This document shows, one piece after another, positions 4,834 to 54,087 of a stretch of DNA of 64,000 nucleotides. This stretch comes from Hyphomicrobiales bacterium (GTDB taxonomy: Bacteria; Pseudomonadota; Alphaproteobacteria; Rhizobiales; MH13). The notes under the pieces were generated by a model. It searched no databases and was not told the origin of the DNA. It saw only the letters and a list, made by a program, of their open reading frames with translations. The stretch lies in contig JBKAGZ010000004.1 of NCBI GenBank assembly GCA_046290645.1, positions 196,327 through 260,326 on the forward strand, in the 5' to 3' direction. The translations under genes were made by a program, and so were the position numbers. How positions within the stretch are numbered: position 1 is the stretch's first letter; the number at the start of each line of letters is the position of its first letter.

Positions 4834-6185
4834 GCCAACCCAACGCGCCGTTGCTTGCCTGGTACGGCGATGATTTCACCGGCTCAGCAACTGTCATGGA
4901 GGAGTTTGCGTTTGCCGGCGTGGAAAGCGTTCTCTTCCTCGATATCCCTGATGCAGAGCAATTGGCGCGTTTTGCAAGCGCACGCACCACTGGCCTGGCG
5001 GGTACCAGCCGCGCCCACAGTCCGGACTGGATGGAACAGAACTTGCCCGCGCCCTTTGCATTTCTGCAACGGCTGAACGCGTCGCTTAACCTCTACAAGA
5101 TTTGCTCCACGCTTGATTCCTCGCCTGAGATTGGTTCCATCGGCAAGGCGCTGGCGATTGCCAGAAAGCAGTTTGGGCAGGGCGTGATCCCCCTCTTCCC
5201 CGCATCACCGAAGATGGGACGCTACCAGTGCTTTGGCACGCTTTTCGCCCGCGCTGATCAAACGGTCTATCGTCTGGACCGACACCCTGTCGTCTCTCAC
5301 CATCCCGTTACGCCGATGGATGAAGCTGATGTGGCCAGGCACATTGCGCGCCAAACCGATGAACCTATCGGATTGATCACACTGACAGACTTGCCGCGGG
5401 CTCAAGAGGTGTTCGCCACGCTGGCAAAGACCGGTGTTGGAATGGTTTCCATTGACGCTGTTGGCTCAGCCGATCTCATCGCCTGCGGGCAGCTTTTCGC
5501 CAGCCTGCCGCATGGCAGCTTGTTAGCAGGCTCCCAAGGCGTGGCGGAAGCGCTGGTGGAGTACTGGCGAACCATTGGCGAGAACGTTGGCGGCAGCGCC
5601 CAATTGCAAACGCCTGGCAGGGCAAACAAAATGGTGGGCCTGTCGGGGTCTTTGTCCCCAACGACACACAGTCAAATTGATCAAGCGCTGGCCGACGGTT
5701 TTGTTGGCGTGCCGCTTGATACCGAACGGTGCCTGGGCACTAAAAAGCAAGCGGCTGTTCGTCAAAGTGTCGAGGCGACACTCGCTATTTTGTCAGAGGG
5801 CAAATCGCCTTTGGTCTACTCCGCACGTGGCCGTGATGACCCGGCGGTAGCCAAACACCAGAACGCAGCAGAGCGGCTTGGCTTGACCAGCGAAGTTGCC
5901 AATCAGAAAATCGGTGAGGCACTGGGTGAGGTGTTAAGCCAGCTGGTCACTACGGGCGCGGTAACACGGGCAGCAATCGCAGGAGGCGACAGCTCTGGCT
6001 ACGCCCTGAAACGCCTTAACATGTTGGCTCTGACGGCATTGATGCCAACGGCTCCCGGCGCTGCGCTTTATCGTGCCCACCCAATGTCGAAGGAGGGTGC
6101 GACGCTCGAAGTGGCTCTAAAGGGCGGGCAGATGGGTTCGCGCACCTACTTTGCCGAAATTCGCGATGGAAATCAGCGCGCCTAG
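4830..6185 (+). CDS. DUF1537 / four-carbon acid-sugar kinase family protein
   Basis: N-terminus MSQPNAPLLAWYGDDFTGS, the hallmark DDFTG motif of this family. ATG 4830 forms an ATGA overlap with the RLP stop. The ORF-track extension from 4743 lies inside the RLP gene. Confidence 0.85.
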   Translation: MSQPNAPLLAWYGDDFTGSATVMEEFAFAGVESVLFLDIPDAEQLARFASARTTGLAGTSRAHSPDWMEQNLPAPFAFLQRLNASLNLYKICSTLDSSPEIGSIGKALAIARKQFGQGVIPLFPASPKMGRYQCFGTLFARADQTVYRLDRHPVVSHHPVTPMDEADVARHIARQTDEPIGLITLTDLPRAQEVFATLAKTGVGMVSIDAVGSADLIACGQLFASLPHGSLLAGSQGVAEALVEYWRTIGENVGGSAQLQTPGRANKMVGLSGSLSPTTHSQIDQALADGFVGVPLDTERCLGTKKQAAVRQSVEATLAILSEGKSPLVYSARGRDDPAVAKHQNAAERLGLTSEVANQKIGEALGEVLSQLVTTGAVTRAAIAGGDSSGYALKRLNMLALTALMPTAPGAALYRAHPMSKEGATLEVALKGGQMGSRTYFAEIRDGNQRA

Positions 6186-6201: not shown

Positions 6202-6915
6202 CTAAAAAAGATCAAGCACGGATCTAAAGCGTTTGACGCTATCGGACACGTGATACGCGACCCGGCCAGGCGGTACAGGAACCTGGACGGCGCTTGCTTC
6301 GATCATGATCCCGAAACGCTTGGGGGCCATGTTGACCATAGATGGCAGCCGAAACCGCCGAGATTTGCCCCAGTCTCGCCAACTCTGTTCATCGGCATTA
6401 GGCAAAAAGCGCAAGGAATTATCCCACATGCGATCACGGATTGTATCGCTCTTGGCAACAAGTGCGTTGTAGATCGCAACCCGTTCCTTGCGATTGGAGG
6501 GCTCAAACGCTGCTGAAAAACAAAGGTCATGAGCCCCGATTTGAAGATCAAATTGCGGGCTGAGCTCCACCTCATCAAGGGTACGCCAAGCGATGTGGAC
6601 AAGGGCTTCTTCCCAAACGCGTCCAGGGTGCAGCCGCCCCAACCCTGGGTCATATTCAAGCGCGGCGTAGGGTTGGTTCAGAGCGGTGGAAAGATAGCGT
6701 GCGATATAGTCAGCCAACTCACGCGCTGAACTGGGAAGCAAGGCAACATCTCGTTCGAACCGACCACCAAACCGATGTCTTGGAGCCGACGCAGGGGCTC
6801 GCTTCAAAGCGCGCGCGATTGTCGAGAAGGTCTCAGACAACCGGTCACCACCGCGCTCATAAGGTGTTTGGAAAAAGGCAGCGTTACCCAGATCGTTTTG
6901 CGTGTGCTGCTCCAT
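6202..6915 (-). CDS. hypothetical cytoplasmic protein, co-transcribed with RND pump
   Basis: 237-aa ORF starting 6 nt after the RND permease stop. No TM segment, signal peptide or motif I recognise. Confidence 0.6.
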   Translation of the reverse strand: MEQHTQNDLGNAAFFQTPYERGGDRLSETFSTIARALKRAPASAPRHRFGGRFERDVALLPSSARELADYIARYLSTALNQPYAALEYDPGLGRLHPGRVWEEALVHIAWRTLDEVELSPQFDLQIGAHDLCFSAAFEPSNRKERVAIYNALVAKSDTIRDRMWDNSLRFLPNADEQSWRDWGKSRRFRLPSMVNMAPKRFGIMIEASAVQVPVPPGRVAYHVSDSVKRFRSVLDLF

Positions 6916-6921
6916 AATCGA

Positions 6922-9900
6922 TCACTCCGCTGCGATAGGTTGGGGGGTAAGGAGGCCACCGCCTTTACCTTCATCATTGTCGGCTTTGGCGGACTTGCGG
7001 GCAGCTTGCCTGGCAAGCTTGCGTTCGTCCTTTGCTTTGCGTTTGGCTGCCTGCCTCACGGCGTTCTCAGCCCGGCGCTCCTTGCGCAGATAGCTGTGGT
7101 AGAGCACCGGCACACCGACCAGGGTTAGAACTGAGGCGAACCCCAAACCGCCCATAATGCTAACTGCCATGGACGCAAAGAACGGATCGCTTAGCAGAGG
7201 GATCATGCCCAGTATGGTCGTGCCAGCTGCAAGCACCACCGGTCGCAAACGGCTGATCGACGCAGCAACAATCGCATCGCTTTGGAACGCATGATCCTTT
7301 TTCTGCTCATCGATTTCTTCAACCAAAACGATGCCGTTCTTGATCAGCATCCCTGACAGAGACAGCAGCCCCAGAAGCGCGGTGAAACTGAAAGGTAGCC
7401 CGGTGAAAAGCAGGCCAAGCGCCACGCCGTTCACGGCCATAGGAACGAGCGTCCAGATCACCGCCGTTTGACGCAGCTTTCCGAAAACCAAAATGGTCAG
7501 CAGAAGCATGGTGCCAAACGCCAGCGGCATTTGCCGACCCAGGCTTTGCTGCGCGGTGCTCGCGCTTTCAAATTCACCGCCCCACTCCATGCGGTAGCCA
7601 GGTGGGAGCTGCATGTCTTCGATAAGCGGGCGTACTTCGCTGAACACGCTTGGTGGCATGACGCCGGGCGGCGTGAAGGATTGCACAGAGATGGTCGGCA
7701 CGCGGTTGCGCCGCTCAATGACCGTGTCTCGGACTTCCACGTTGAAACCATCAACGACTTGTTCAAGCGGAACGAAACCCTCAGTCGCGCGAGAATACAC
7801 CGGTTGGTCGAGAACAAGGCCGTTGGCCGACTGCTCTTCACGTGGTGTGCGCACCAGGATTGGAATCTGACGTTCCCGCTCGCGGTAGACGCCAGCTTGA
7901 ACGCCATCCGTTGCCAGGGCGATGGCTTGGGAAACATCCTGGCGACCAATGCCGAGGGCCTGCGCGCGATCTGTTGCGAAGATGGGCTGGACGGCAAGTT
8001 CACGCTCACGCCAGTCGATGCGCTCGGTGAGCAGCAAATCGGTTTGTGTTTCAAAAATTAGCTGCGCTTCATCTGCCAAGGTGCGCAGCACATTTGGGTC
8101 GGGACCGGAGAACCGTACCTCGACATCAGCGCTAACTGGCGGACCGTAGATAATCTGCTCTGTTCGCACCTCAGCCCAAGGCAGGGTTTCAAAGCTGAAC
8201 GCATCCAAATCCGCACGCAGCTCTGGAATGGCCTCAAAACTCTCTGCGCGGATAATGATTTGACCAAAAGCAGGATCAGGGTTCGGTGGCGTATAGGTGA
8301 GGATGTAGCGTGAGAAAGGTCCGCCAGCGGTGGTCGTGAAAGCTCGCACATCCTCGCGCTGGGCAAGCCAGGCTTCCACTTTGACAAGGTCGCCTGCCGT
8401 CTCGTGGACAGATGTGCCCTGGGCTGCCTGGTAGTTCAGATAAAACAAAGGTGTATTGGCAGGCGGAAAGAACTGCTGGGTGACCATGCCGAATGCCCAC
8501 AAGCAGGCGACCGTGGTGCCAAGCAGCATCGTGATGACCAGCCAGCGGACGTAGAGCGCGCCGCGCACCACCTGGCCATAGAGGCGGAAAAACACCGTGT
8601 CATACGGATCTTTTCCCTCTTTCAGCCCACCAACCTTGAACACATAGTTGGCGAGCAGCGGTGTAACGGTAACAGCGATCAACCAGCTGAGCATGAGCGA
8701 GATGCCAATGACGGCAAACAGCGAGAACAGGAACTCGCCGGAGCTGTCCGGGCTCAAACCAATGCCCGCGAACGCCATGATGCCGATAACCGTGGCGCCA
8801 AGCAGAGGGAACTGCGTTTTACGAGCAACTTCGGAGGCAGCGTCCTTGGCTTTGCGGCCCCGGCGCATTTCCACCTGCATGCCTTCAGCAACAACAATTG
8901 CGTTGTCAACAAGCATGCCCATCGCGATGATCAGGGCGCCAAGGCTGATGCGTTCCACCTTCACATCAAAAATGTTCATGAAGAAGAAGGTGAAGCTCAC
9001 GGTCAGAAGCAGCGAAACGCCAACAACCAGCGCTGAGCGCCAACCCATGAAAACCGCCAGAACCAGGATCACGATGCCCACCGACATCATGAGGGAATTG
9101 AGGAAGTCGCCATTGGCTTCATCAACAACACGGTGCTGCTCATAAATGGGTGCAAGCTCGACACCAACTGGAAGAATGGTCTCAAGCTCGGCAAGCTTCT
9201 CTTCAACGCGCGCGCCCACCGCGACGATGTTTTCAGAGGTCAAACCAGCGATGGCGATCGTGAACGCTTCCTCCCCATTGTGGCGGATGATCTGGCCGGG
9301 CTGATCAACGCGGCTGCGATAGACGCGTGCGAAATCGGTGAGATTCAAAACCTCGCCATCAACACCAAAGCTCAGCGATCCAATCGATGAAACGCTATCG
9401 TCGGCTTCCGGCGCATCAATCTCAACTTGTCGCCCGCCGTTACTGGCTTCCCCGGTCGGGTTAAGGGCTGTTGAGCCACCGATGACAGAGAAGATCGTGG
9501 CCGGATCAACACCAAGATTGACGATGGACCGAGTGGACGGCTCAACGTAGATCGCCTCTTCCGGCAGGCCAAAAACCTCAACATTGGCCACACCGCCAAC
9601 AGTGAGGACTTCCCGGCGCAAGAACGTGGCAATTTCCCATATTTGCGCATCGCTGAAGCCTGTTGTCTTCACCGCATAATAGAGGCCGAAAACATCGCCG
9701 AAACTGTCATTGATGGTGGGGGGAAAGCTACCATCGGGAAGGACGGAGCGAGCATTGTCGATCCTGTCGCGCAAATCATCCCAAATCTGAGGCAGATCGC
9801 CGCCATCATAAATATCCTTCATCTCAACTTCGATAACCGAGACGCCAGGAATGTTGCGTGAGGAGATGATGTTCACCTCGCCCATCTGTTGAATTTCAGC

Positions 9901-10104
9901 CTCAAGAACCTCTGAAACTTCTATGGCAACCTCACTAGCCGAGGCGCCGGGATAGGGCGTGATGACGAGCGCTGATTTGAGCGTGAAAGTGGGGTCTTCC
10001 AACTTGCCGACCCCGGCATAACCAGCCAAGCCACCAAACAAACAGAAGAGTATCAAAAGCCAGGTGTAGAGTGGCTTCTCAATCGACAAACGAGCGATCT
10101 GCAT
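6922..10104 (-). CDS. RND efflux transporter permease (AcrB/HAE family)
   Basis: 1060 aa with the typical N-terminus (SIEKPLYTWLLILF) and 12-TM/large-loop organisation. It has a Lys/Ala-rich C-terminal tail. The start lies 4 nt after the adaptor gene stop. Confidence 0.95.
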   Translation of the reverse strand: MQIARLSIEKPLYTWLLILFCLFGGLAGYAGVGKLEDPTFTLKSALVITPYPGASASEVAIEVSEVLEAEIQQMGEVNIISSRNIPGVSVIEVEMKDIYDGGDLPQIWDDLRDRIDNARSVLPDGSFPPTINDSFGDVFGLYYAVKTTGFSDAQIWEIATFLRREVLTVGGVANVEVFGLPEEAIYVEPSTRSIVNLGVDPATIFSVIGGSTALNPTGEASNGGRQVEIDAPEADDSVSSIGSLSFGVDGEVLNLTDFARVYRSRVDQPGQIIRHNGEEAFTIAIAGLTSENIVAVGARVEEKLAELETILPVGVELAPIYEQHRVVDEANGDFLNSLMMSVGIVILVLAVFMGWRSALVVGVSLLLTVSFTFFFMNIFDVKVERISLGALIIAMGMLVDNAIVVAEGMQVEMRRGRKAKDAASEVARKTQFPLLGATVIGIMAFAGIGLSPDSSGEFLFSLFAVIGISLMLSWLIAVTVTPLLANYVFKVGGLKEGKDPYDTVFFRLYGQVVRGALYVRWLVITMLLGTTVACLWAFGMVTQQFFPPANTPLFYLNYQAAQGTSVHETAGDLVKVEAWLAQREDVRAFTTTAGGPFSRYILTYTPPNPDPAFGQIIIRAESFEAIPELRADLDAFSFETLPWAEVRTEQIIYGPPVSADVEVRFSGPDPNVLRTLADEAQLIFETQTDLLLTERIDWRERELAVQPIFATDRAQALGIGRQDVSQAIALATDGVQAGVYRERERQIPILVRTPREEQSANGLVLDQPVYSRATEGFVPLEQVVDGFNVEVRDTVIERRNRVPTISVQSFTPPGVMPPSVFSEVRPLIEDMQLPPGYRMEWGGEFESASTAQQSLGRQMPLAFGTMLLLTILVFGKLRQTAVIWTLVPMAVNGVALGLLFTGLPFSFTALLGLLSLSGMLIKNGIVLVEEIDEQKKDHAFQSDAIVAASISRLRPVVLAAGTTILGMIPLLSDPFFASMAVSIMGGLGFASVLTLVGVPVLYHSYLRKERRAENAVRQAAKRKAKDERKLARQAARKSAKADNDEGKGGGLLTPQPIAAE

Positions 10105-10108
10105 CGGT

Positions 10109-11332
10109 CTATTCCTCGACTTTCAGGCCGGTGTACCGGCGCACAGATTGCCCATCGCGTAGCAGGTGTGCGCCCACATTCACAACTTCAACATCAGGCG
10201 ACAGGCCGGTGACCTCAAAACTGGTGCCGTCAATGCTGGTGACGTCCACTTCAACAGCGCGCACTACACCTTCCTCGGCGCCTGCCGGCTCAAAAACCAT
10301 GACATAGGGATCACGGTTTTCATCCGCGGCGATGGCTGTGGTTGGGAGGATCAGCGAGGCGGTTGGGTGCGGAAGAGCCGCCGTGACGGTTAATGAGCTC
10401 CCGGGCAGGAGAGCCGTAGATGACACATCGGGCAGCGCCAAGCTGAACTGGTAGCTTTGGCCAACCCGCTCGGTTTGCGCTTGGAACTCAATGATCGAAA
10501 GCTCGATGGGAGCGTCCATGCCCAAAGGATGCGCGGTGAACGTCACCTGATCGACCCTTGGAAACCGTTGGATTAAACGCTCGGGAACGTCAATTTCCAC
10601 CCGCATCTGCGAGACGTCATGAATGCGGACCACTGGGGTGCCAGGCGCTATAATGACATGATTGGCAATCAGACGCTCAGCGATAAGACCGCGATACGGG
10701 GCCGTGATCGTCGCGTCTGCAAGAGCATCGCGCGCCTCACGCAGAGCAACGTCTGCAAGGTCACGGGCCGTTTCCGCATCTTCGGCCTGTGTGCGAGGCC
10801 CAACGTTCTGGCGCGCCAATTCCTGTGCGCGCTCTAGACTGCGCTCAGCCTGTATGAGCTGGAGTTCGGCGCGCTCCACCGCCCGTTCAAACGGTGCCAG
10901 GTCAAGCTGCGCGAGAAGCTGCCCTGGCTCCACAATTGTTCCTTCCTCAATCGGGAAAGATGTCATGGTTCCGTTGAGCGGAAAGGCCAAGTCGGCCGTC
11001 TCACGCGCGACCACGCGGCCGAAGAAATTGCGTTGCAGGATGGTTTGCCGATCCGCTGGCATCGCCAACTCCACTGCCCGCAGAACTGGCGCAGCAGTTT
11101 CATCGACAACCTCTTCGGCTGGTTCTTCGCCATCAACGGGTTCTTCAGCGCCTATGCCAATCAAAGCCAGCGCTTGCTCGATAAAGGACGGCGAAGCACC
11201 CGCCGGTTCCTGTTGTTTAGAGGCCGCAACAACGGGCGTGGCTTCTTGAGCATGCGTCTGCGGCGCCAAAACCAAAGCGCACATCAAGCCCGCACTGATG
11301 AGCAATGTCTTGGATGGGGGGATGACTTGCAT
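10109..11332 (-). CDS. RND efflux periplasmic adaptor subunit (HlyD/MFP family)
   Basis: 407 aa with a signal peptide (LMCALVLAPQTHAQE) and coiled-coil/barrel-sandwich type sequence. It sits immediately upstream of the RND permease. Confidence 0.9.
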   Translation of the reverse strand: MQVIPPSKTLLISAGLMCALVLAPQTHAQEATPVVAASKQQEPAGASPSFIEQALALIGIGAEEPVDGEEPAEEVVDETAAPVLRAVELAMPADRQTILQRNFFGRVVARETADLAFPLNGTMTSFPIEEGTIVEPGQLLAQLDLAPFERAVERAELQLIQAERSLERAQELARQNVGPRTQAEDAETARDLADVALREARDALADATITAPYRGLIAERLIANHVIIAPGTPVVRIHDVSQMRVEIDVPERLIQRFPRVDQVTFTAHPLGMDAPIELSIIEFQAQTERVGQSYQFSLALPDVSSTALLPGSSLTVTAALPHPTASLILPTTAIAADENRDPYVMVFEPAGAEEGVVRAVEVDVTSIDGTSFEVTGLSPDVEVVNVGAHLLRDGQSVRRYTGLKVEE

Positions 11333-11366
11333 TGTGCTATGCCTCGCACTAACTCTGTTTTAGTCT

Positions 11367-11380
11367 ACCGACCGGTCGGT
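11367..11380. promoter_or_regulatory. perfect 14-bp palindrome ACCGACCGGTCGGT, candidate TetR operator
   Basis: Located in the 72-nt divergent region between the adaptor gene (start 11332, -) and the TetR gene (start 11405, +). Confidence 0.6.
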
Positions 11381-11404
11381 TGGTTTATAGGTTAGGAAAA
11401 GTAC

Positions 11405-12049
11405 GTGGCAAGGTCGGCGCGAAAAAAAGAGGGCACTCTGGTGTCGACTGCTGACACAATCGTCGAAACCGCGACTGCGCTTTTTATGGCGCAGGGCTAC
11501 GCCGGCACGTCGATGAGCGCGTTGGCAAAAGCATCGGGCATCCAGAAAGCAAGTCTGTACCATCACTTTGATAGCAAGGAGGCGGTACTGTTTGCCTGCT
11601 TGCAAAGCGGGTATGCCGATCACGTCGCGCAGATGCGCGAAGCAGCGACCAACTCCAGCCTGTCATTTCGCGAGCGTCTCAGCCCACTTTTGGATGCTGT
11701 TTATGGCGCGATCGTTGAATCCAACGCTGGCAAGATGGCACCGATCATTGCTGAAACAACCGGTCGGTTCCCCGAGATAGCCGAGCGTTTCAACGACGAA
11801 TTCATGGCTGAGATGCAAGCGATATTTCAGGCCTATGTTGAGGGAGGCATGCAAGCTGGCGCGTTTGATCAGATGAACACAGAAACACTTGATCACGCGC
11901 TGTTTGGTATCCCGGTGAACCTCACACTGTGCCGCTCGATGTTCGATGGGTTCGAAATTGCTGATACCAAGTATGACATCGCGACCGTCAAAGCCCACCA
12001 CCTGCAAATCATGAGCAAGCTGTTCGGTATCGACGCTCAGACCAACTAG
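11405..12049 (+). CDS. TetR/AcrR family transcriptional regulator
   Basis: N-terminal HTH ATALFMAQGYAGTSMSALAKASGIQKASLYHHF. GTG start, divergent from the RND operon. Confidence 0.9.
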   Translation: MARSARKKEGTLVSTADTIVETATALFMAQGYAGTSMSALAKASGIQKASLYHHFDSKEAVLFACLQSGYADHVAQMREAATNSSLSFRERLSPLLDAVYGAIVESNAGKMAPIIAETTGRFPEIAERFNDEFMAEMQAIFQAYVEGGMQAGAFDQMNTETLDHALFGIPVNLTLCRSMFDGFEIADTKYDIATVKAHHLQIMSKLFGIDAQTN

Positions 12050-12051
12050 GT

Positions 12052-12522
12052 TTAGCGGCGTGTGCGCTGCTCAAAGGTCTTTTTCGCTCGCTTGTGCGCA
12101 TCAGCGATCAGCGGAATGCAGGCCTGCCACGTTGCTTCAGTGGGTGAGAGAACCGCAATCCACCCCATCCAGGCATAGACCGGATGCGGCATGATCATGT
12201 CTGCTTGGGCGAAGTCCCAGGGCCCTTCGATGGTTGCGCCGTTGCCAGGTCGCTGCGGTGTCGCGCCAAACATCGAAACATAGGTTGACTTCTGAACGCC
12301 AATGTTGAGCCGCCAAATACCCTCTCGATCGAGATTTGAGCCGCGGTCATTCTCGCCATCCTTTTCTTTGACGGTGGCAAAGTAGGTGCCGCGCTTCAAA
12401 GCCTCTCCTGGATTGTAGAAGTAAGATGTTTCACCCCAGGCCTGCCTTGGGGTAACACCCGGCAATCGCGCCATGATATGATCATGGACGCTGCTGATTG
12501 TGATCCATGTGCTTTGCGACAT
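12052..12522 (-). CDS. DUF6194-like conserved protein
   Basis: Block WGETSYFYNPG...YFATVKEKDGENDRGSNLDREGIWRLNIGV...MPHPVYAWMGW matches my recollection of DUF6194. The start is ambiguous: 12522 overlaps the YafY gene by 41 nt, and ATG 12474 is the alternative. The stop is 2 nt from the convergent TetR stop. Confidence 0.6.
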   Translation of the reverse strand: MSQSTWITISSVHDHIMARLPGVTPRQAWGETSYFYNPGEALKRGTYFATVKEKDGENDRGSNLDREGIWRLNIGVQKSTYVSMFGATPQRPGNGATIEGPWDFAQADMIMPHPVYAWMGWIAVLSPTEATWQACIPLIADAHKRAKKTFEQRTRR

Positions 12523-13183
12523 GAAGGAGATAGTCCTCAATGGTTTTGCCGGGTTCGGTTGCGAAAACCTCTCCAGTAACGTCACACGCTGTCATCCGAT
12601 CAATGCGAAAAGCACGAAAACCCCGGCGCAGCTCACACCAGGCTGAACACGTCCATGCGCGCCCCCAGTAGTCGGTTTGAAGCGGGCGGATCACACGCTC
12701 ACTCAGTTTGTCGGATAAGCTTAGATAGGTAAGGTTGACCTTCAGCCTGTCCCGGATGGCGCGGCGCAAAAGCGGCATGTATTTGAGCCCGGCTCTAACA
12801 CGCTCAAACTCGTAAAGACCGAAACCCCAGCTATCGGGCGTCTTTCTTCGGTTGGGCGCATGACTTGCAATTTTCTCATGCAGCGTTCTAGCGGCGCCCT
12901 GAAGTTCGGTATCCGCCACTTCCTGCACAATCGACATCCCAAGGCTGAGAGCTTCAAGTTCACTGAGCGATAACGCCAGGGGCGGAAGAAAGATCGGCTC
13001 GCGTAGGAGATAGCCAACGCCCCGCTCGCCTTCGATTGGCACCCCGGACGCAACGAGCGTGCCGATGTCCCTGTAAATCGTGCGCTCAGAAACCTCCAAA
13101 GCCTCTGCCAAGTCGCGAGCCAGGTGAAGCCGTCCATCACGGACGATCTCCACAATCTCGCTGAGCCGCTCACTGCGCCTCAT
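12482..13183 (-). CDS. YafY family transcriptional regulator (HTH + WYL domain)
   Basis: N-terminal RRSERLSEIVEIV...ARDLAEALEVSERTIYRDI HTH followed by a WYL-type C-terminal region. Confidence 0.85.
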   Translation of the reverse strand: MRRSERLSEIVEIVRDGRLHLARDLAEALEVSERTIYRDIGTLVASGVPIEGERGVGYLLREPIFLPPLALSLSELEALSLGMSIVQEVADTELQGAARTLHEKIASHAPNRRKTPDSWGFGLYEFERVRAGLKYMPLLRRAIRDRLKVNLTYLSLSDKLSERVIRPLQTDYWGRAWTCSAWCELRRGFRAFRIDRMTACDVTGEVFATEPGKTIEDYLLHVAKHMDHNQQRP

Positions 13184-13192
13184 GTCTGTCGA

Positions 13193-13513
13193 TCAGTTCA
13201 CAGACACTTCAAGTTCGGTGTGATGCATTTTCACGGTTGAACCGTCGATTGCCGATAAAAAAGGACGGTTGGTTTCCACCGCCCCAAGCGCAGCAGCGGC
13301 ACCTTTAGCCGCTTCCATCGTCTCCCACTCGATATGCTCAATCCACGCACCGTCTTCGCCACAAGACAAGCGGCGAGAGATGAAGCCGGGCCGTGCGGTC
13401 ACAAAATCATTCATCGATTGGGCGGAGGCGGAAAATTGCTCCCGGCTTACGCCCTCATTGAGCTTGAAGGTTACGGTCTCAATAACGTGCTTGGTCATGG
13501 GCTTCATCTCCAC
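13193..13513 (-). CDS. small ABM/Dabb-fold (antibiotic biosynthesis monooxygenase-like) protein
   Basis: 106 aa, 9 nt upstream of the YafY gene. Typical ~100-aa ferredoxin-like pattern (ETVTFKL...W.S.EA). The start could be GTG 13513 or ATG 13507. Confidence 0.6.
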   Translation of the reverse strand: MEMKPMTKHVIETVTFKLNEGVSREQFSASAQSMNDFVTARPGFISRRLSCGEDGAWIEHIEWETMEAAKGAAAALGAVETNRPFLSAIDGSTVKMHHTELEVSVN

Positions 13514-13675: not shown

Positions 13676-13957
13676 CTATGTCTCATCTTCAGGCGTTTCA
13701 GAGGATTTTTGGCTTGATCGCGCGCCGTCAGAGTTTGGATGTGTGCCGCGTGGCCAACGCTTGGCCTTGCGCATACCGTGGATGGCTACGCCAAGGACCA
13801 AAACCGCGAGAACCAGCGGCACCGCATGAAAAGGTGACGCCAAGAAATGATCGACCAAAGATGATGGTGCCATTGCATCATGATGACCGGGATGCGCCGC
13901 TGCGATCTGCGTTGAAGCCAGCATCAAGAGTGCGGTTCTCGATATCAGAGTCTTCAC
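13676..13957 (-). CDS. small secreted/membrane-anchored His-bearing protein (signal peptide, HPGHHD, one TM)
   Basis: GTG 13957 is preceded by AAGGGA and lies 1 nt after the His-rich gene stop. Predicted signal peptide KTLISRTALLMLASTQIAAA, then HPGHHDAMAPSSLVDHFLASPFH, then TM segment VPLVLAVLVLGVAI. Last gene of the riboswitch operon. Confidence 0.55.
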   Translation of the reverse strand: MKTLISRTALLMLASTQIAAAHPGHHDAMAPSSLVDHFLASPFHAVPLVLAVLVLGVAIHGMRKAKRWPRGTHPNSDGARSSQKSSETPEDET

Positions 13958-13958
13958 G

Positions 13959-14456
13959 TTAGTTCCCTTCGGTTTGAGTGTGTTTGGCATCGAGTGCGTC
14001 GACCAAGTCGACATCGGCCCGTTCGGTCAGCGACACGTAAACGAATGTCATGGTCTCACGCTCTTCAACCATGGATGCTGGGTAAGGAAGGTAGACCAGG
14101 TCGCGCTGCGCAAACGCTGGCGATGCTGTGCCCAGCTGCCATTTGCTTTCAATCACGGTATCAACGAGGTGCATCTTTAGGCCATCGCTCCCCGTACGAC
14201 TGATCGGGATGCCGGCCAGCTCCATGAAGGAAGGTTTATCGTCTGCCTTTCGGAACCCCTCAATAAAGGATGCGGCCAAGGACTGCAGACGATGCTGACG
14301 CTCCTTTTTTGGATCAACATGCACATGGCTGTGCATGTGCTCGTGGTCATGCGTGTGATTGTGACCAACGCCATGGTCATGGCCATGATGATCATGCCCA
14401 TCGTGATCATGGCTGTGGGTGTGGGTGTGCTCGTTTTGATGGCGATGTTGGCTCAT
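13959..14456 (-). CDS. extremely His-rich protein, putative metallochaperone
   Basis: 20 of the first 46 residues are His (HTHTHSHDHDGHDHHGHDHGVGHNHTHDHEHMHSHVH), followed by a ~110-aa non-repetitive domain. The ATG overlaps the ureohydrolase stop (ATGA). Confidence 0.8.
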   Translation of the reverse strand: MSQHRHQNEHTHTHSHDHDGHDHHGHDHGVGHNHTHDHEHMHSHVHVDPKKERQHRLQSLAASFIEGFRKADDKPSFMELAGIPISRTGSDGLKMHLVDTVIESKWQLGTASPAFAQRDLVYLPYPASMVEERETMTFVYVSLTERADVDLVDALDAKHTQTEGN

Positions 14457-15715
14457 GGCTTCAAATCCCAGCCTTGAGAGTCAACATCCGGCCCCTGAGG
14501 AATGGAAACAGGTTTGTCGATGATCGCCTTGTGAGAGCCGAGCTTCCCGTGGCTCACAAGAGTGCCAAGCACATCAACGATGACCCGTGTGGCCAGCAGC
14601 GCCGTGATGTCTGAGGTGTCATAGGGCGGAGAAACCTCGACCACTTCGAGCCCGCATATGCCTTCCTTGGCAACCAGCGAGACAAGCTCTAGCGCTTCAC
14701 GTGGCAGAAACCCGCCGGGCTCCGGCCAACCGGTTCCAGGCACGAAGCCACAATCAACGCTGTCAATGTCGAATGAGATGTAGACTGCGTCCGCGTCTTT
14801 CCATGCAAGTTCAAGCGCACGTGCTGCGGTTTCCGCCAGTCCCATCTCTTCGATGTCACGCATTGTAAAAATGTTGGTGTTGCGCTTGCGCGCTTCCTCA
14901 ACGCCCTCGCGCGGCACCTGCCAACCACCAATGCCCACCTGCACCAGGTTGACTGCCGGCACATTGGCAAGGTCCGTCGCATGGAACCAGGGCGTGGTGT
15001 GCATGCGTTCATCCAAGTCTTTTTCCTGGATGTCGATATGCCGGTCGAAATGGACAATACCGATGCGTTTGGACGTACATTGGGCAATACCGCGCACGCA
15101 TGGGAAGCCAATCGAATGGTCACCGCCGATCATGATCGGCAGCGCACCTGAGGATGCAACATGGCTGACTGCACGGGAAACCTGATCAAAGGTTTTTTCG
15201 ATGTTGGCGGGAATTGTGAAAACATCCCCGACATCACACAGCGTCATCTGCTCGCGTAGATCGATACCCATTTCATAATTGTAAGGCGTGTAGAGCGCCG
15301 AGATCTTGCGCACGCCTTGCGGGCCAAAGCGTGTGCCTGGGCGATAGGTGGTGCCGCCATCAAAAGGCACACCAATGATGGCTGCATCATAATTACCAAC
15401 CAGAGTGGCGTCTTCAATGTAAGGTGCCTTCAAGAAGGTGTTGATGCCGGCATAATGGGGCAGCTCACCACGGGCGAATGTTGGTATCGTCTTGTCTTCC
15501 AGACTGTCGGAGCCTGTCAGTCCCATACGCAGCGCCCAGGCGCGTTCTTGCTGCCAGGCGGCGGACGGCAGCGTGCCTTCCTTCTGGGCAGACTTCCAGC
15601 CGCGCATCTGGAGCTTGTCAAAATCAGGGTGGTGCTGCCGCGCACGACGGCCCTTTTTGGCCCGGTCCGATTTCCGAGAGGCACGGCGTGGCCCCATTCC
15701 AAACAGTTCTTCCAT
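14453..15715 (-). CDS. arginase-fold ureohydrolase (agmatinase family), candidate guanidine hydrolase
   Basis: Family motifs IGGDHSIGFP, HFDRHID, SFDIDSVD and GLEVVEVSPPYD. There is a ~70-residue Arg/Lys-rich N-terminal extension relative to SpeB-type enzymes. GGAG lies 7 nt upstream of the ATG. The gene is in a guanidine-I riboswitch operon. Confidence 0.85.
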   Translation of the reverse strand: MEELFGMGPRRASRKSDRAKKGRRARQHHPDFDKLQMRGWKSAQKEGTLPSAAWQQERAWALRMGLTGSDSLEDKTIPTFARGELPHYAGINTFLKAPYIEDATLVGNYDAAIIGVPFDGGTTYRPGTRFGPQGVRKISALYTPYNYEMGIDLREQMTLCDVGDVFTIPANIEKTFDQVSRAVSHVASSGALPIMIGGDHSIGFPCVRGIAQCTSKRIGIVHFDRHIDIQEKDLDERMHTTPWFHATDLANVPAVNLVQVGIGGWQVPREGVEEARKRNTNIFTMRDIEEMGLAETAARALELAWKDADAVYISFDIDSVDCGFVPGTGWPEPGGFLPREALELVSLVAKEGICGLEVVEVSPPYDTSDITALLATRVIVDVLGTLVSHGKLGSHKAIIDKPVSIPQGPDVDSQGWDLKP

Positions 15716-15730: not shown

Positions 15731-16543
15731 TCAGTTAGGGTGTGCTGCTGGGGTGCTGAAGAGCTGTTCTGGCTCGGGCACCGTTGCACCGGTCTTTTGA
15801 TCAAGTGGTAGGTCGTAAGTGATGGTCGCCCCGTAGCGCTCCGGCGCGTGGGGGTCATGGCGCGTCTTGTCAAAAACGAGCACGCGGCTTCCAAGCTTGA
15901 AGGCTTCGTTGATATCGTGGGTGACCATGAAGATGGTCATTTCGAGCTCTTGCCAGAGGTCGAGCAGCAACGCGTGCATGTCCAGCCGGATGCCCGGGTC
16001 GAGCGCGCCAAAAGGTTCATCAAGAAGCAGAACGCTAGGTCGCTTGAGAAGCGCTTGCGCAATCGCCAATCGCTGCTGCATGCCGCCCGAAAGTTGGGTT
16101 GGAAAGCGCTTGCGTGCGGCCGCCAACCCAATTTTCTCCAGCGTTTCGCTGACTGCCTCGCGCGCTTGGCGGCGCGTGGCACCGAATAGCCGCCCCGTCA
16201 CAAAACTGCGCTCAAATTCGCTCGCCAGTATCAGATTGTCTTCGACCGACAAATGCGGAAACACCGAATACCGCTGGAACACGATGCCGCGGTCGGGGGT
16301 TGGCTCACCTGGCAGTGGCTCGCCATCAAGCAGGATCTCACCGCGCGTCGGTGTTTCCTGCGACAACAGCATGCGCAGGAATGTTGATTTCCCACAGCCG
16401 GACGCACCAACAATCGTGCAAAACGCTCCTTGGTCCACATCAAGCGAAACACGCTCCAGCACAATCGTATCGCCATAAGACTTGCCAACATTGCGCACAG
16501 CAAGCTTCGGTAGGGCGCCAGTCTCTGCCGCAGCCTCACTCAT
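15731..16543 (-). CDS. ABC transporter ATP-binding protein (NitT/TauT family)
   Basis: Walker A GASGCGKST, signature LSGGMQQR, Walker B LLLDEPF. Overlaps the permease gene by 4 nt. Confidence 0.9.
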   Translation of the reverse strand: MSEAAAETGALPKLAVRNVGKSYGDTIVLERVSLDVDQGAFCTIVGASGCGKSTFLRMLLSQETPTRGEILLDGEPLPGEPTPDRGIVFQRYSVFPHLSVEDNLILASEFERSFVTGRLFGATRRQAREAVSETLEKIGLAAARKRFPTQLSGGMQQRLAIAQALLKRPSVLLLDEPFGALDPGIRLDMHALLLDLWQELEMTIFMVTHDINEAFKLGSRVLVFDKTRHDPHAPERYGATITYDLPLDQKTGATVPEPEQLFSTPAAHPN

Positions 16544-17361
16544 AAGCTTTCACCTTGCATATGGTGCCAAGGGAAAGCTCGGCGCGAGAGCATTAAAAGC
16601 AACTGATCCAAAATGTAGGCGAGCAGGGTGATCCACAGCACGTAAGGCAAGATGACATCCATCGCCAAAAACCGCCTGACCAGAAAGATGCGGTATCCAA
16701 GACCGGACGTTGATGCGATGGCTTCGGCGGAGATGAGGAAAATCCAGCCAGGCACAAGCCCAAGCCGGACCGCTGTAATCAGCTTGGGCAACACTTGAGG
16801 CAGAACCAGTCGTACGATCATGTGCCAGGTGTTGGCGCCCAATGTCTGGGCCTTGATAACCAGCTCTTTGGGGATGTCGATAACGGCCTGGGCGATGGAT
16901 CGGGTCATGACCGGTGCAGTGCCCAGCGTGACCAACATGACCTTCGACGTTTCGCCCAAGCCAACCATGATGAAAAGGATTGGCAGGATGGTGATCGGTG
17001 GGATCAGCGAAATCGCCGCGACATAGGGCGCAAGCATCGTGCGCGCATGTGGCAGAAACCCGATCAAAATGCCCAGCACCAGTGCAACGGTAGTTGCCAG
17101 GCCCACCCCAATGCCGAGCCGCCAAAGACTATCGAACGTGTCGACCCACAACAGAAGGTCCCCTGTTCGGCGATCTGGGACAAAAGCCATGCGCCAGAAT
17201 GTTGACCCCATCTGCCCCAGTGAAGGCAACAGCTTGTCGGCTGGGTTTTCCAGGCGGCGATAGTGGCTCGCCACCGCGTAGGCAATCACAGTCGCCGCAA
17301 AGGGAAGCGCGACGAGTGTGAAAGCCGCAACCCGGCCAGGGGATCGATTGATCAGGCGCAT
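16540..17361 (-). CDS. ABC transporter permease (NitT/TauT family)
   Basis: 273-aa polytopic membrane protein of the BPD-transport type, lying between the SBP and ATPase genes. Confidence 0.9.
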   Translation of the reverse strand: MRLINRSPGRVAAFTLVALPFAATVIAYAVASHYRRLENPADKLLPSLGQMGSTFWRMAFVPDRRTGDLLLWVDTFDSLWRLGIGVGLATTVALVLGILIGFLPHARTMLAPYVAAISLIPPITILPILFIMVGLGETSKVMLVTLGTAPVMTRSIAQAVIDIPKELVIKAQTLGANTWHMIVRLVLPQVLPKLITAVRLGLVPGWIFLISAEAIASTSGLGYRIFLVRRFLAMDVILPYVLWITLLAYILDQLLLMLSRRAFPWHHMQGESL

Positions 17362-17387: not shown

Positions 17388-18449
17388 TTACAGCGCGCCG
17401 TCAGCTGCCATCTGCATGTAGGTGGTGTCAAAGCGCAGCTGCACATTGTCAGGGTCACCAAAGATCGACCCGTCGGGGAAGCTCACACCGACGAACTCCG
17501 GTGATGGTGCACCTTCACCAAGAATACCGTTGTCAAACAGGAATTCAGCAACGAATTGCATCGTTGTTGAAAGCTCAGGCGCGCTTGTGAAGGCCACCGC
17601 ATCGGCAGGATCATAAAACATGGTGGTTGTATCAAGCTGGGCCTGATAGCCAGCCAAATCGGTGCCTGATGCGGATGCCAGCGCATCAAGCACATCCGTA
17701 TCACCTGCCGCCATAAGATCCATCATCTCGTACCAAGCGCCAACCAGCGCCTTGCCAAAGTCTGGATTGGCCGCAAGCGTGTCGGTGTTGACCATCATGA
17801 CGTCAATGATTTCGCCGGGGATGTTCGAGGAATCAAAAACCTGCGTGGAACCGGGCATGGCAGTGATTTCCGACAGGAGTGGGTTCCACGTCACAACCGA
17901 AGTAACATCGTCGGTGGCATAGGCCGCGATCATGTCAGCGTCCGATGTGTTGACGACGGTTAGGTCACGTTCGCTCAAACCAACGCCATCAAGCGCACGG
18001 GCCAGCAGATAGTGTGAGACCGACAGTTCGACGAGATTGACGTTTTGACCGGCGAGATCGTCAACGCTGTCACCATCTTTCAAGACAATACCATCATTGC
18101 CGTTTGAGAAATCACCGACGATCAGTGCTGTTGTGTCGACCCCACCGCCAGCGGGAATGGAAAGTGCGTCCATGTTCGTCATGGAACAGCCGTCGAATGC
18201 ACCGGCCGTGTATTGGTTGATAGATTCCACATAGTCGTTGATCTGAACGATCTCGACGTCAATGCCGTATTTGTCGGCCCATTTATCCATGATGCCGGAT
18301 GTTTGTAGGTAGCCCCATGGCATCCAACCCACATAGATCGACCAGCAAACGGAGAACTCGGTCCGTTCCTGCGCCGATGCCGCTTGGGGAGCGCCCAGCG
18401 TCAGCAGTGTTGCAGACACCAGTGCCGCGGTTTTGATTGTCTTGATCAT
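17388..18449 (-). CDS. ABC transporter substrate-binding protein (NMT1/NitT/TauT-like), candidate guanidine-binding
   Basis: Signal peptide ALVSATLLTLGAPQAASAQE. AAAGAGG Shine-Dalgarno lies upstream. First gene downstream of the guanidine-I riboswitch. Confidence 0.85.
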   Translation of the reverse strand: MIKTIKTAALVSATLLTLGAPQAASAQERTEFSVCWSIYVGWMPWGYLQTSGIMDKWADKYGIDVEIVQINDYVESINQYTAGAFDGCSMTNMDALSIPAGGGVDTTALIVGDFSNGNDGIVLKDGDSVDDLAGQNVNLVELSVSHYLLARALDGVGLSERDLTVVNTSDADMIAAYATDDVTSVVTWNPLLSEITAMPGSTQVFDSSNIPGEIIDVMMVNTDTLAANPDFGKALVGAWYEMMDLMAAGDTDVLDALASASGTDLAGYQAQLDTTTMFYDPADAVAFTSAPELSTTMQFVAEFLFDNGILGEGAPSPEFVGVSFPDGSIFGDPDNVQLRFDTTYMQMAADGAL

Positions 18450-18553
18450 TGATACGCGCCTCTTTGCTCATTCGGCGATGTGATCGCCATGGTGAAAAGA
18501 GGTTTGAGCACGCATACCGGGAGAAGGTTCGCGCGCGCAAACCAGTGCAGTTA

Positions 18554-18655
18554 TCTCCCGGGATTTTGTCCCGCCGTGTTCACCGACCTGATCGCCGGTT
18601 GGCATCTCTCGGACCTGCATCATTTGCTAATATCAAATGATCGGAACCCTAGACG
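18554..18655 (-). promoter_or_regulatory. guanidine-I (ykkC) riboswitch aptamer
   Basis: Minus-strand RNA: GUCUAGGGUUCCGAUCAUUUGAUAUUAGCAAAUGAUGCAGGUCCGAGAGAUGCCAACCGGCGAUCAGGUCGGUGAACACGGCGGGACAAAAUCCCGGGAGAUAAC. It contains the three hallmark blocks CUAGGGUUCCG, GGUCCGAGAG and ACACGGCGGGA..AAA..CCCGGGAGA, plus a perfect 8-bp hairpin AUCAUUUG/CAAAUGAU. Confidence 0.9.
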
Positions 18656-18678
18656 CCCGCTGCACATACGCCTTGCTA

Positions 18679-48561: not shown

Positions 48562-49083
48562 TCAATCGAGCCGCGTCTCGAAGACGGCCTCGATCTCGAC
48601 GGTGATCTGGTTGGGTAGCGATCCGACGCCGAAAGCGCTGCGCGCATGCACGCCGTCCTCTGCGCCAAAGACCTCCGTTAGCAGTTCCGACGCACCGTCA
48701 ATCACATAGGGATGATTGGCAAATTCCGGGACGGCGTTCACCATGCCCAGCAGCTTCACCACACCATTGATCTTGTCCAAACTGCCCACATGGGCGCGCA
48801 ATGCGGACAGGATGTTGATGGCCACAAGGCGGGCATGGCCACGCGCGTCTTCATCGCTAACGTCCAAACCAACTTTGCCGCATTTCAACGTGCCGTCGGG
48901 CAAAACAGGACCCTGGCCGGAAACAAAGACCAGCGCTCCAACCTGCCGCACATTCTTGAAGGCACCTATCGGCTTGGGCGCCAAGTCAGGAAGGCTCAGT
49001 CCGATTGCCCTTAGGCGACCTTCCGGTCCAAGTGGCTGGCTGGTTTGCGCTTTGGATGGATGATCGGACTCAGACAGAGTCAT
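48562..49083 (-). CDS. RidA/YjgF family reactive-intermediate (enamine/imine) deaminase
   Basis: VFVSGQGP ... ARSAFGVGSLPNQITVEIEAVFE. Overlaps the upstream ATPase gene by 14 nt. Confidence 0.85.
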   Translation of the reverse strand: MTLSESDHPSKAQTSQPLGPEGRLRAIGLSLPDLAPKPIGAFKNVRQVGALVFVSGQGPVLPDGTLKCGKVGLDVSDEDARGHARLVAINILSALRAHVGSLDKINGVVKLLGMVNAVPEFANHPYVIDGASELLTEVFGAEDGVHARSAFGVGSLPNQITVEIEAVFETRLD

Positions 49084-50035
49084 TAAGAGCCTCGATTCGT
49101 TTGCAATAGCTGGTATGAGAAGGCGAGAGCATCACCGGATCGGGCACGCCCGAACCACATGGCTCCTGGGCGATTGGGCAACGCGTTCTGAACACGCACC
49201 CCGATGGTGGATTGAGCGGACTTGGAATATCGCCCCGCAAAATCGTACGGGTTTGCGCAGCCTTGGGGTCGGGCACTGGAATGGCCGAAAGCAAGGCGCG
49301 CGTGTAAGGGTGCGAGGCGCGCTGATAAAGGTCGCCAGAGGCCCCCTTTTCAACAATCTTGCCCAAATACATGACGATCGTCTGATCGCACAGATACTCA
49401 ACAACTGACAGATCATGCGCGATGAACAGCATCGTCAGGTTGCGCCGTTCTCGCAGTTCCAGCAGCAAGTTCAACACTTGGGCCTGAATGGAAACGTCCA
49501 ACGCCGAAACGCTTTCATCAGCAACGATGAACTCCGGCTCCAAGGCCAGAGCCCGGGCGATGCCGATACGCTGGCGCTGGCCGCCGGAAAACTCGTGCGC
49601 GAAGCGCTCCATATGGTCGGCCTTAAGGCCAACTTCCTCAAGAAGCGCTGCCACCCTTTCGCTTTGCTCGCTGGCTGAGCCAATCCCATGGGCCACCAGC
49701 CCCTCGGCGATGATCGCTTTCACGCGAAGCCGTGGGTTCAGCGAGGACACAGGGTCCTGAAAGATAATCTGCATGCGCTTGCGCATGGCGCGCAACGCGG
49801 CGTGGGACAGGGTGTTGATGTCATGGCCATCAAACAATGTTTGGCCGCTGGTGGGCTCAATCAGTCGCAAGAGCGTGCGCCCAAGCGTCGTTTTGCCCGA
49901 TCCACTCTCGCCAACAAGGCCGGTAATCGAGCCTCTTTGCATATCAAAACTAACGTCGCTGACGGCCTGAACCAGCCCATCGCCGGTCTTGAACGTCTTG
50001 GACAGATTGCGGATTTGGACCAGGGGTTCAGGCAT
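49070..50035 (-). CDS. ABC transporter ATP-binding protein (DppF/OppF-like)
   Basis: ATG 50035 ([15 protein letters not shown]), GESGSGKTT, FSGGQRQRI. 8-nt overlap with the upstream ATPase gene. Confidence 0.9.
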   Translation of the reverse strand: MPEPLVQIRNLSKTFKTGDGLVQAVSDVSFDMQRGSITGLVGESGSGKTTLGRTLLRLIEPTSGQTLFDGHDINTLSHAALRAMRKRMQIIFQDPVSSLNPRLRVKAIIAEGLVAHGIGSASEQSERVAALLEEVGLKADHMERFAHEFSGGQRQRIGIARALALEPEFIVADESVSALDVSIQAQVLNLLLELRERRNLTMLFIAHDLSVVEYLCDQTIVMYLGKIVEKGASGDLYQRASHPYTRALLSAIPVPDPKAAQTRTILRGDIPSPLNPPSGCVFRTRCPIAQEPCGSGVPDPVMLSPSHTSYCKRIEALNDSV

Positions 50036-51026
50036 CGGCCAACGCCCCTTCGACCTTGATGCACGCGACCTGGTGGGCCGGCCGAAGAGGCATGAGGTCG
50101 ACCGGGTTCCGACAGGCGTCGTCGGCACGCACACAGCGCGGGGCAAACGCGCATCCTGGCGGCATGGCACTCAACGCTGGAACAGTCCCAGGAATGGGCA
50201 CAAGCCTTGTTTCCGGATCGCGGCCAGGCCTGGGTATCGAGGCCAGCAAACCTTGCGTGTACGGATGAAGTGGCAAGGCAAACAGATCATCGACGCCGGC
50301 ATCTTCGACCACGGCACCGGCATACATCACCGCCACGTCATCGGCCATTTCGGCGACCACGCCCATATCGTGTGTGATGAACAGGATGGACATGCCCAAC
50401 TCGCTCTGCAAACGGCGCATCAGGTCCAAAATCTGCGCCTGAATCGTCACATCCAGTGCAGTCGTGGGTTCATCGGCGATCAACAAAGAAGGATTGCACA
50501 CCATCGCAAGGGCGATCATCACCCGTTGGCGCATGCCACCGGAAAGCTCGTGCGGGTAGCTGTCTATGCGCTGGCCAGCTGCTGGGATCTCCACCAGATC
50601 GAGCATGTCTAGAACGCGTTTACGACGGGCTGCTGGATCTAGCTCGGTGTGCAGAAGGAGCATTTCGCCGATCTGATCGCCGATCGTGAAAAGCGGGTTC
50701 AGGGACGACATCGGCTCCTGGAAAATCATCGCGATGTCCGAGCCGCGCATGCCGCGCACCTCAGCCTGGGAGGCCTTTGTCAGGTCAACCGCGCTGCCGT
50801 CGCGGTGATGATAAGTGATCGAGCCGCCAGCCACCGATCCATTGCTGGGAAGAAGGCCCATAATCGCCAGCGAGGTCACCGACTTACCCGAACCGGATTC
50901 TCCAACGAGCGCCAGTGTCTTGCCGGCGTGCAGTTGGAAGCTTACATCGCGCAAGGCACGCACCTGTCCGCGCGGCATCTGAAAGGCGACGCTCAAGCCT
51001 GCCACGTCAAGGATCGGCGCGCTCAT
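50028..51026 (-). CDS. ABC transporter ATP-binding protein (DppD/OppD-like)
   Basis: [30 protein letters not shown]. The start overlaps the amidohydrolase stop (ATGA). Confidence 0.9.
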
Positions 51027-53011: not shown

Positions 53012-53018
53012 CAGACCC

Positions 53019-53960: not shown

Positions 53961-54041
53961 AACGCCTTTACTTCTCGCAACGGTTGGGGGCGGCGGGGGT
54001 GCAGTCTAGGGGGAGACGGCGCGGGATGCACACATTGGATC

Positions 54042-54074
54042 CATGGGATCGACCCGCATAGGACCGATCCCATG
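54042..54074 (-). other. intercistronic hairpin after SBP gene (10-bp perfect stem)
   Basis: CATGGGATCG-N13-CGATCCCATG, 14 nt after the SBP stop. No U-run. Confidence 0.4.
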
Positions 54075-54087
54075 TCGCTTTTCGGCG

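Follow-up and report, generated by a model that had tools for sequence, protein, structure and literature searches.

Directly downstream of an orthologue of the nickel-dependent guanidine hydrolase gene gdmH, a 64,000-nucleotide (nt) stretch of DNA from a Hyphomicrobiales bacterium (GCA_046290645.1, contig JBKAGZ010000004.1, positions 196,327 to 260,326; hereafter the window, with positions numbered from its first letter) carries a gene for a histidine-rich protein of 165 amino acids (aa). Judged from its sequence and homologues, this protein belongs to an undescribed and unnamed family outside Pfam. The linkage of the family to gdmH was essentially absolute in both directions of search, and the family is the leading candidate both for a partner dedicated to GdmH in Proteobacteria and for the missing nickel-loading helper where the chaperones GhaA and GhaB are absent. 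On the minus strand, the order of the operon was a guanidine-I riboswitch, an ATP-binding cassette (ABC) importer, the gdmH orthologue, the 165-aa gene, and a gene for a 93-aa membrane protein. We favored the reading that the last two encode a GdmH-dedicated nickel-maturation partner and an optional periplasmic metal-capture peptide, with a rough probability of 55%.

The best sequence match of the 420-aa enzyme in the Protein Data Bank (PDB) was Synechocystis Sll1077/GdmH (7esr/7oi1, E 1.4e-161, residues 44-393), accompanied by the guanidinase of Nitrospira inopinata (9fek, E 3e-157); the next-best matches, proclavaminate amidinohydrolase and guanidinobutyrase, followed at about 1e-50. These matches mark the enzyme, which the initial annotation had called a ureohydrolase, as a close orthologue of Ni-dependent GdmH, with guanidine hydrolysis and nickel use predicted. 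Residues 1-43, which include an N-terminal extension of some 40 residues, basic in character (MEELFGMGPRRASRKSDRAKKGRRARQHH...), and the C-terminal tail (residues 394-420) fell outside the alignment to the Synechocystis and Nitrospira structures; both extensions could be contact sites for a partner. Nickel loading of Synechocystis GdmH requires GhaA and GhaB (PMC12186494, PMC12704784), and cyanobacterial gdmH carries the corresponding HypA/HypB-like genes ghaA-ghaB (sll1078/sll1079) with it (PMC12704784). A 2024 study of comammox bacteria found no nickel chaperone for its guanidinase and called the mechanism of Ni loading unclear; the enzyme produced in E. coli contained about 0.4 Ni per subunit (PMC11410670).

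The linkage to gdmH was followed in 80 genome loci retrieved through the 165-aa protein and in 80 metagenome loci retrieved independently through GdmH (73-94% identity). All 80 genome loci had the family gene directly 3' of a gdmH orthologue (86-97% identity), with the ABC genes upstream. Among the metagenome loci, the family gene lay directly downstream in 74 of 80; one more copy was cut by the contig end (L158) and the remaining five loci ended within 145 nt of gdmH, giving 75/75 informative loci with the gene. Co-occurrence with the hydrolase, set beforehand as a test of the initial annotation, was very strong for the first protein at both counts. Members only 28-44% identical to the window protein still followed GdmH orthologues of 71-82% identity (L081, L083-L087), and another such distant member followed an arginase-family gene for which no GdmH identity was calculated (L174), a pattern suggesting that the partner evolves much faster than the enzyme yet keeps its place. 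A start codon lay within 30 nt of the gdmH stop, or overlapped it, in 151 of the 160 loci, a statistic that is approximate since upstream in-frame GTG/TTG codons confuse automatic start choice; the window and L174 had a 4-nt overlap with the upstream stop. Two further look-ups (P0131, P0149) returned one short contig and one further ABC-type locus. In one metagenome contig (L081:1-5336), a full set of urease genes (ureABC-E-F-G-D) and a Na/Ca exchanger gene immediately preceded gdmH and its partner, which links guanidine hydrolysis and the breakdown of its product, urea, in one neighborhood.

The 165-aa gene (13959-14456, minus strand) shares bases 14453-14456 with the gdmH stop in an ATGA arrangement, and its product holds 20 His in residues 1-46, 23 His in total and no Cys. 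The overlap, the length and the His count were thus confirmed as first annotated, and so was the lack of a P-loop and of HypA-type zinc-ribbon cysteines (no GxxxxGK[ST] and no CxxC in a motif count). Pfam and NCBIfam scans gave no match, and a PDB profile search returned only His-tag-like matches (E>=0.058). The profile and structure searches that the initial annotation had proposed therefore placed the protein in no known family or fold, and no Pfam or NCBIfam family was found for either of the two proteins, which it had described as unrecognizable.

Homologues defined the family more closely. A first search gave 155 relatives from marine Alphaproteobacteria (Hoeflea, Roseibium, Thalassospira, and Oricola), all named "hypothetical" and without a Pfam domain, and a second search with a broad alignment gave 216 proteins, again all hypothetical. 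A profile built on residues 47-165, the His-free core, and run against 1.84 billion representative proteins detected 145 clusters at E<=1e-3, 77 of them at E<=1e-10. Ten diverse members scanned for Pfam had no domain of their own; the only significant match, HupE_UreJ in P0180, lay in a fused downstream segment, and P0185 had a sub-threshold DUF6632 match only (E 0.049). Alignments A1, A2, A4, and A5 gave the core consensus F-x-x-G-F...D-K/P-x-x-F-L-R-L-A-x-I/V-P...V-G-x-A-S-P-x-F...L-x-Y-x-P-x-P...F-x-Y-V-S, and the window protein has both the core and the gene position of this GdmH-linked core-domain family. Since many other genomes encode conserved versions of both proteins, the two downstream open reading frames (ORFs) are taken to be real genes, not chance. 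Four database entries (P0122, P0180, P0224, and P0234) were chimeric gene calls, in which the C-terminus of GdmH runs on into the partner, or the partner continues into the small transmembrane protein or HupE. Frame-shifts in the assemblies are the probable cause, and as a by-product the entries corroborate this gene order in additional organisms.

Searches by tblastn with E. coli HypA and HypB found nothing HypA/HypB-like in the window and, in 167 related loci, only the UreG of the urease cluster in L081, so the absence of GhaA/GhaB that had been noted in the initial annotation held for all of these. An ORF with a GxxGxGKT motif (49070-50170), considered as a hidden HypB, was rejected as an Opp/Dpp-type ABC ATPase. 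Neither could the 165-aa protein be assigned to a known chaperone. Identity with HypA/GhaA (two CxxC pairs, an MHE site, PF01155) was rejected on 0 Cys, no Pfam or NCBIfam hit and the negative tblastn, and identity with the G3E GTPases HypB/GhaB/UreG (cobW, PF02492) on the lack of a P-loop motif and of a Pfam hit. For UreE (UreE_N/UreE_C), the Pfam and NCBIfam scans at E<=0.1 and the Foldseek searches were negative, and the PDB matches were His-tag-like only.

AlphaFold2 (AF2) modeling of the core with a 51-sequence alignment (predicted local distance difference test, pLDDT, 94; predicted template modeling score, pTM, 0.78) predicted two helices, a sheet of long intertwining beta-hairpins, and a C-terminal helix. 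A Foldseek search of this model against the PDB gave a best E of 0.17 and nothing with a template modeling (TM) score above 0.3, and the first full-length model (pLDDT 72.6) likewise had no PDB fold match below E 0.1. The weak top hits were intertwined oligomers, namely domain-swapped cystatins and COMM domains. Identity with either was rejected, as the best COMMD/COMM-domain hits (E 0.12-2, TM 0.17-0.40) and the cystatin hits were non-significant; in the models, they hint at oligomerization, not homology.

UreE and HypB carry variable His tails. The His tract of the window protein was modeled with a pLDDT of about 47-50, consistent with disorder, and holds a conserved motif, G-x-G-H-N-H...H-(L/M)-H-S-H-V-H (alignment A1), whereas tract length and position vary among family members. 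Among 76 representatives with a complete core, at least five His lay N-terminal to the core in 33 and C-terminal to it in nine. A tract that moves between the termini looks, by analogy with UreE and HypB, like a selected metal-binding module.

The second downstream gene was listed from its first ATG as a 112-aa ORF (13676-14014). This reading was rejected, since homologues begin at the position of a GTG codon at 13957 and the longer form overlaps the His-rich gene by 56 nt. From the GTG, which is preceded by GAAGGGA and lies 1 nt after the TAA stop of the His-rich gene, the protein is 93 aa long: a signal-peptide-like N-terminus closing with A-A-A is followed by HPGHHD...H...SPFH, a single hydrophobic helix, and a basic C-terminal tail. 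Its sequence and the homologue starts agree with the initial annotation, which had given 93 aa, a signal peptide, HPGHHD...H...H, and a single transmembrane helix. The predicted periplasmic part has about 25 residues (peptide HPGHHDAMAPSSLVDHFLASPFH). Alignment A3 contained invariant A21, H22, and H26 and near-invariant G24, H37, and H44, which places conserved His at predicted mature positions 1, 5, 16, and 23 (SPFH), with Gly3 near-invariant. N-terminal His exposed by signal-peptide cleavage chelates Ni/Cu in periplasmic proteins, including domains fused to HupE/UreJ-2 (PMC12537917).

The small gene followed the His-rich gene in 47 of the 76 genome loci with room for it, often with a 4-nt overlap. 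A hidden Markov model (HMM) detected it in 8/61 distant metagenome loci, an underestimate, as divergent forms of the same design in L098, L110, L125, L131, L139, L155, and L160 escape the HMM. The small protein is facultative, and the earlier idea of a two-gene module stood in part: the first protein was strictly gdmH-linked, but the pair was not obligate, the small gene being found in about 60% of close loci and in far fewer distant ones.

Elsewhere, the small protein had several links to nickel systems. In L150, a full-length HupE_UreJ gene (6600-7136, plus strand; Pfam E 1.2e-54) held the slot of the 93-aa gene, 20 nt after the family gene and under a guanidine-I riboswitch; P0180/L086 was a chimeric read of the same arrangement. 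A profile search gave 23 relatives, one of which bears the Joint Genome Institute (JGI) name HupE. A 71-aa relative with a signal peptide, an AHPGH start, and one transmembrane helix (L169:7001-7216, L170:2237-2452) heads a hypA-hypB-hypF-hypC-hypD-hypE operon of a Chitinophagaceae metagenome-assembled genome (MAG), with NiFe hydrogenase genes in divergent orientation beside it, and a 92-aa relative lies between an ABC ATPase and ureD (L172). Comparison with real HupE by hhalign gave E 0.0029 over 36 N-terminal columns. Membership in the HupE/UreJ permeases, which are marked by HPxxGxDH in the first transmembrane helix and by FHGxxHGxE, was rejected: PF04955 and PF13795 were matched neither by the window protein nor by 29 homologues, even at E<=10, and the protein has one transmembrane helix vs about six and no FHGxxHGxE. 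DUF6732 (PF20506) was rejected as well, with 8.1 bits for the window protein and 20.7 bits for the best homologue vs a gathering threshold of 27 bits; weak hits occurred in 11 of the 29 homologues (best E 0.0076), and two divergent ones gave E 3.6e-4 and 5.6e-3.

From gene context and protein anatomy, we infer metal delivery by both proteins, and with it nickel binding, docking on GdmH, metal transfer, the topology, and signal-peptide cleavage. The His-free core would most likely dock on nascent GdmH, probably as an oligomer, and the flexible His tract would collect Ni2+ and deliver it to the di-metal site of the enzyme just after synthesis. By doing so, the 165-aa protein would fill, with neither zinc ribbon nor GTPase, the role that GhaA/GhaB have in cyanobacteria. 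For the 93-aa protein, we envisage export and then cleavage after A-x-A, with His1 becoming the new N-terminus. One helix would keep it tethered, with its four conserved His facing the periplasm, and it would most likely capture Ni2+ (or a similar metal) at the periplasmic membrane face and aid uptake, like a minimal HupE/UreJ N-terminus. A bolder version, which we put forward tentatively, would make the core a new fold and a nucleotide-independent Ni insertase for the di-nickel site, forming the main Ni route to GdmH in Proteobacteria, and the 93-aa protein a minimal single-helix His1 element for Ni capture or uptake, related to the HupE/UreJ N-terminus and reused in hydrogenase and urease clusters.

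Several observations weighed against a nickel-maturation partner with a metal-capture peptide. Across the family, neither His nor Cys is conserved in the core domain, and sequence and fold searches detected no relationship between it and any known metallochaperone. Neither side of the core carried at least five His in 34 of the 76 complete-core representatives (about 45%), several of which were visibly frame-shifted or shortened gene calls. The tract being so often absent, the constant function of the family cannot be tract metal binding alone and therefore most plausibly resides in the core, as recognition of GdmH. The small protein was absent from about 40% of close loci and from most distant ones, and its other distant relatives adjoin an Fe/Mn superoxide dismutase gene or lie in uninformative contexts. 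The resemblance to HupE/UreJ that had been noticed at the outset held for the N-terminal layout, the hhalign E-value, and the slot shared with HupE_UreJ in L150, but not for PF04955, and the hhalign probability was only 10.6%.

The invariant His-free core and the many members without a clear tract would also suit a non-catalytic structural or regulatory GdmH subunit for folding, stability, or hexamer assembly, to which the His tract is accessory. Strict adjacency and translational coupling with gdmH, the extended beta-hairpins of the model, and the intertwined oligomers that are its sole weak fold hits point in the same direction, and heteromeric Ni ureohydrolases exist, metformin hydrolase requiring a second subunit (PMC11399263). 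We nevertheless consider such a subunit unlikely: GdmH of Synechocystis and of N. inopinata, to which the window enzyme is very similar, forms active homohexamers without an extra subunit (PMC11410670), and a His tract at either terminus in 42/76 representatives argues for selection on metal binding. The tract itself, disordered and with its 20 His in 46 residues, could alternatively serve as a nickel store or buffer in the manner of Hpn, HspA tails, or CooJ, supplying or detoxifying Ni2+ without specific transfer to GdmH, and its variable length and position would be expected of a sponge. However, a sponge needs neither a core of about 110 residues kept at 28-44% identity across clades nor a one-to-one adjacency with gdmH, as found in 155/155 loci, and tract-less members could not store metal, which renders this role quite improbable. 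Least probable is a function of both proteins unrelated to metals, for example protection against the chaotrope guanidine or regulation of the ABC importer, with the small ORF a generic membrane peptide; the metal link is drawn from context, and many loci do without the small protein, whose distant relatives also lie beside non-nickel genes, but the four conserved His in a 25-residue periplasmic part, with His invariant at predicted mature position 1, the HupE/UreJ gene in the same slot of L150, the relatives in hyp and ure clusters, the enrichment of His tracts in the 165-aa family, and the nickel dependence of the partner enzyme all speak against it.

The nickel-maturation reading is set in a guanidine-inducible operon (Table 1). 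The guanidine-I riboswitch, which the initial annotation had assumed, was found in the window and likewise preceded the genes in 10 of 12 diverse loci of this kind. The ABC binding-protein, permease, and ATPase genes were also kept upstream in the related loci. The importer is presumed to take up guanidine in a GimA-like manner, and a guanidine role has been assigned to the cyanobacterial homologue of its binding protein (PMC12704784).

Table 1. Features of the guanidine operon in the window, in order of transcription.
Feature	Position	Strand	Evidence
Guanidine-I riboswitch aptamer	18553-18663	-	Rfam RF00442, 76.1 bits vs gathering score 63, E 9.6e-12, full model 1-107
Periplasmic substrate-binding protein, NitT/TauT-type ABC importer	17388-18449	-	NCBIfam TIGR03427 ABC_peri_uca E 2.3e-165; Pfam NMT1
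ABC permease	16540-17361	-	PF00528 E 1.5e-18
ABC ATPase	15731-16543	-	PF00005 E 1.9e-33
GdmH orthologue, arginase family, 420 aa	14453-15715	-	PF00491 E 5.6e-78
His-rich tract, residues 1-46 of the 165-aa protein, 20 His	14319-14456	-	His count; alignment A1; low pLDDT
Core domain, residues 47-165 of the 165-aa protein, and stop	13959-14318	-	Core profile, 145 clusters; AF2 pLDDT 94; outside Pfam
Small membrane protein, 93 aa, predicted signal peptide residues 1-21	13676-13957	-	GTG start; alignment A3; homologues

One related locus (L083) had two guanidine-I riboswitches, at 1321-1424 before the binding-protein gene and at 4961-5065 before the permease gene, with BBP2 (porin-like) and metallo-beta-lactamase-fold genes inserted between them. 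In the window, a scan 3' of the small gene found no convincing terminator. A 106-aa ORF just 3' of the operon (13193-13513, minus strand) had no Pfam or NCBIfam match and contains a terminator-like hairpin (13285-13262), the number of such sites being at chance level. This ORF, a WYL regulator, and a DUF6194 ORF were set aside as parts of the module, as L001, a near-identical MAG locus, was the only one to conserve them. As listed, the WYL/helix-turn-helix regulator ORF (12482-13183, minus strand) overlaps the DUF6194 ORF (12052-12585, minus strand) by about 100 nt, and DUF6194 probably starts further downstream. Opposite the His tract, two antisense ORFs (14270-14614 and 14292-14477, plus strand) encode Met/Val/Ala-rich strings; they are mirror artifacts of CAC/CAT repeats, not genes. 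Adjoining the guanidine locus (6922-12049) were a resistance-nodulation-division (RND) efflux pump, with a 1060-aa AcrB-like ORF and a HlyD-family adaptor (10109-11332), and a divergent TetR regulator (11405-12049). Further away (48562-55611, minus strand), genes of a peptide/nickel-type (PepT family) ABC transporter accompanied those of an amidohydrolase and a YjgF-like protein. The transporter has an SBP_bac_5 binding protein, two ATPases with oligo_HPY, and two ORFs presumed by position alone to be permeases; the family label "nickel-type" would not in itself indicate nickel transport here.

Guanidine is recognized as a source of nitrogen, and comammox nitrifiers also gain energy from it. 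Its hydrolase requires nickel; GhaA/GhaB of cyanobacteria are the only known system for loading GdmH. A literature search combining guanidine, riboswitch, agmatinase, and histidine-rich found nothing, the guanidine literature examined mentions no such partner, and no description of the 165-aa or the 93-aa protein was found in the literature searched. A His-tract accessory protein beside a nickel enzyme is familiar in kind, and it is the family, the fold, and the GTPase-free design that are undescribed. As a conserved, unnamed family found with gdmH in every proteobacterial-type locus examined, it provides a concrete candidate for co-expression toward fully active enzyme. If the proposed role is true, nickel accessory proteins would gain a new, GTPase-free type, and the family would be a lead for the Ni loading of guanidinases without HypA/HypB, such as those of comammox Nitrospira; it would also be relevant to how guanidine is turned over in soils and by marine Alphaproteobacteria. 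The small membrane peptide with its His1, found in hyp and ure clusters as well, may be an overlooked part of bacterial nickel acquisition.

The C-terminal tail of UreE, the N-terminal tract of HypB, SlyD, CooJ, and Hpn exemplify the His-rich nickel accessory proteins. The 165-aa family would be analogous to them in its flexible His tract of variable length and position, attached to a folded domain, and in having its gene next to that of a nickel enzyme; unlike them, it had no Pfam, NCBIfam, or PDB sequence match, its core was without a PDB neighbor, and many members are tract-less. Like ghaA/ghaB, the 165-aa gene adjoins gdmH in a guanidine-riboswitch locus, the expected place of a Ni-loading factor (PMC12704784). 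No relationship to GhaA/GhaB was seen in sequence or fold, and in contrast to that GTPase-driven pair, the 165-aa protein is a single small protein, without a zinc ribbon because it has no Cys and without a GTPase because it has no P-loop. The 93-aa protein shares with HupE/UreJ a signal peptide ending in A-x-A, His at mature position 1, H-x-G, and, where the first transmembrane helix begins, a second His motif, yet with one such helix, not six, it could act as a permease only if oligomerized. Its likeness to DUF6732 consists of sub-threshold scores, and DUF6732, itself without known function, adds nothing functional. Like the "signal strapping" His1 binders (DUF4198, DUF6702, and the Ang-1/Ang-2 "anglerase" domains), it has a signal peptide whose cleavage would expose His1, which in those binders chelates metal and serves Ni/Cu capture beside a permease (PMC12537917); no sequence relationship to these families was found, and they are folded domains of at least 100 residues, whereas its periplasmic part comprises about 25 residues on a single helix. 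Parallel in layout is the operon of the Ni-dependent metformin hydrolase, hypA-hypB-enzyme-enzyme-hupE, which encodes chaperones and a transporter together with the enzyme (PMC11399263); here, the corresponding slots are filled by the His-rich protein and by an optional mini-HupE-like peptide or a full HupE.

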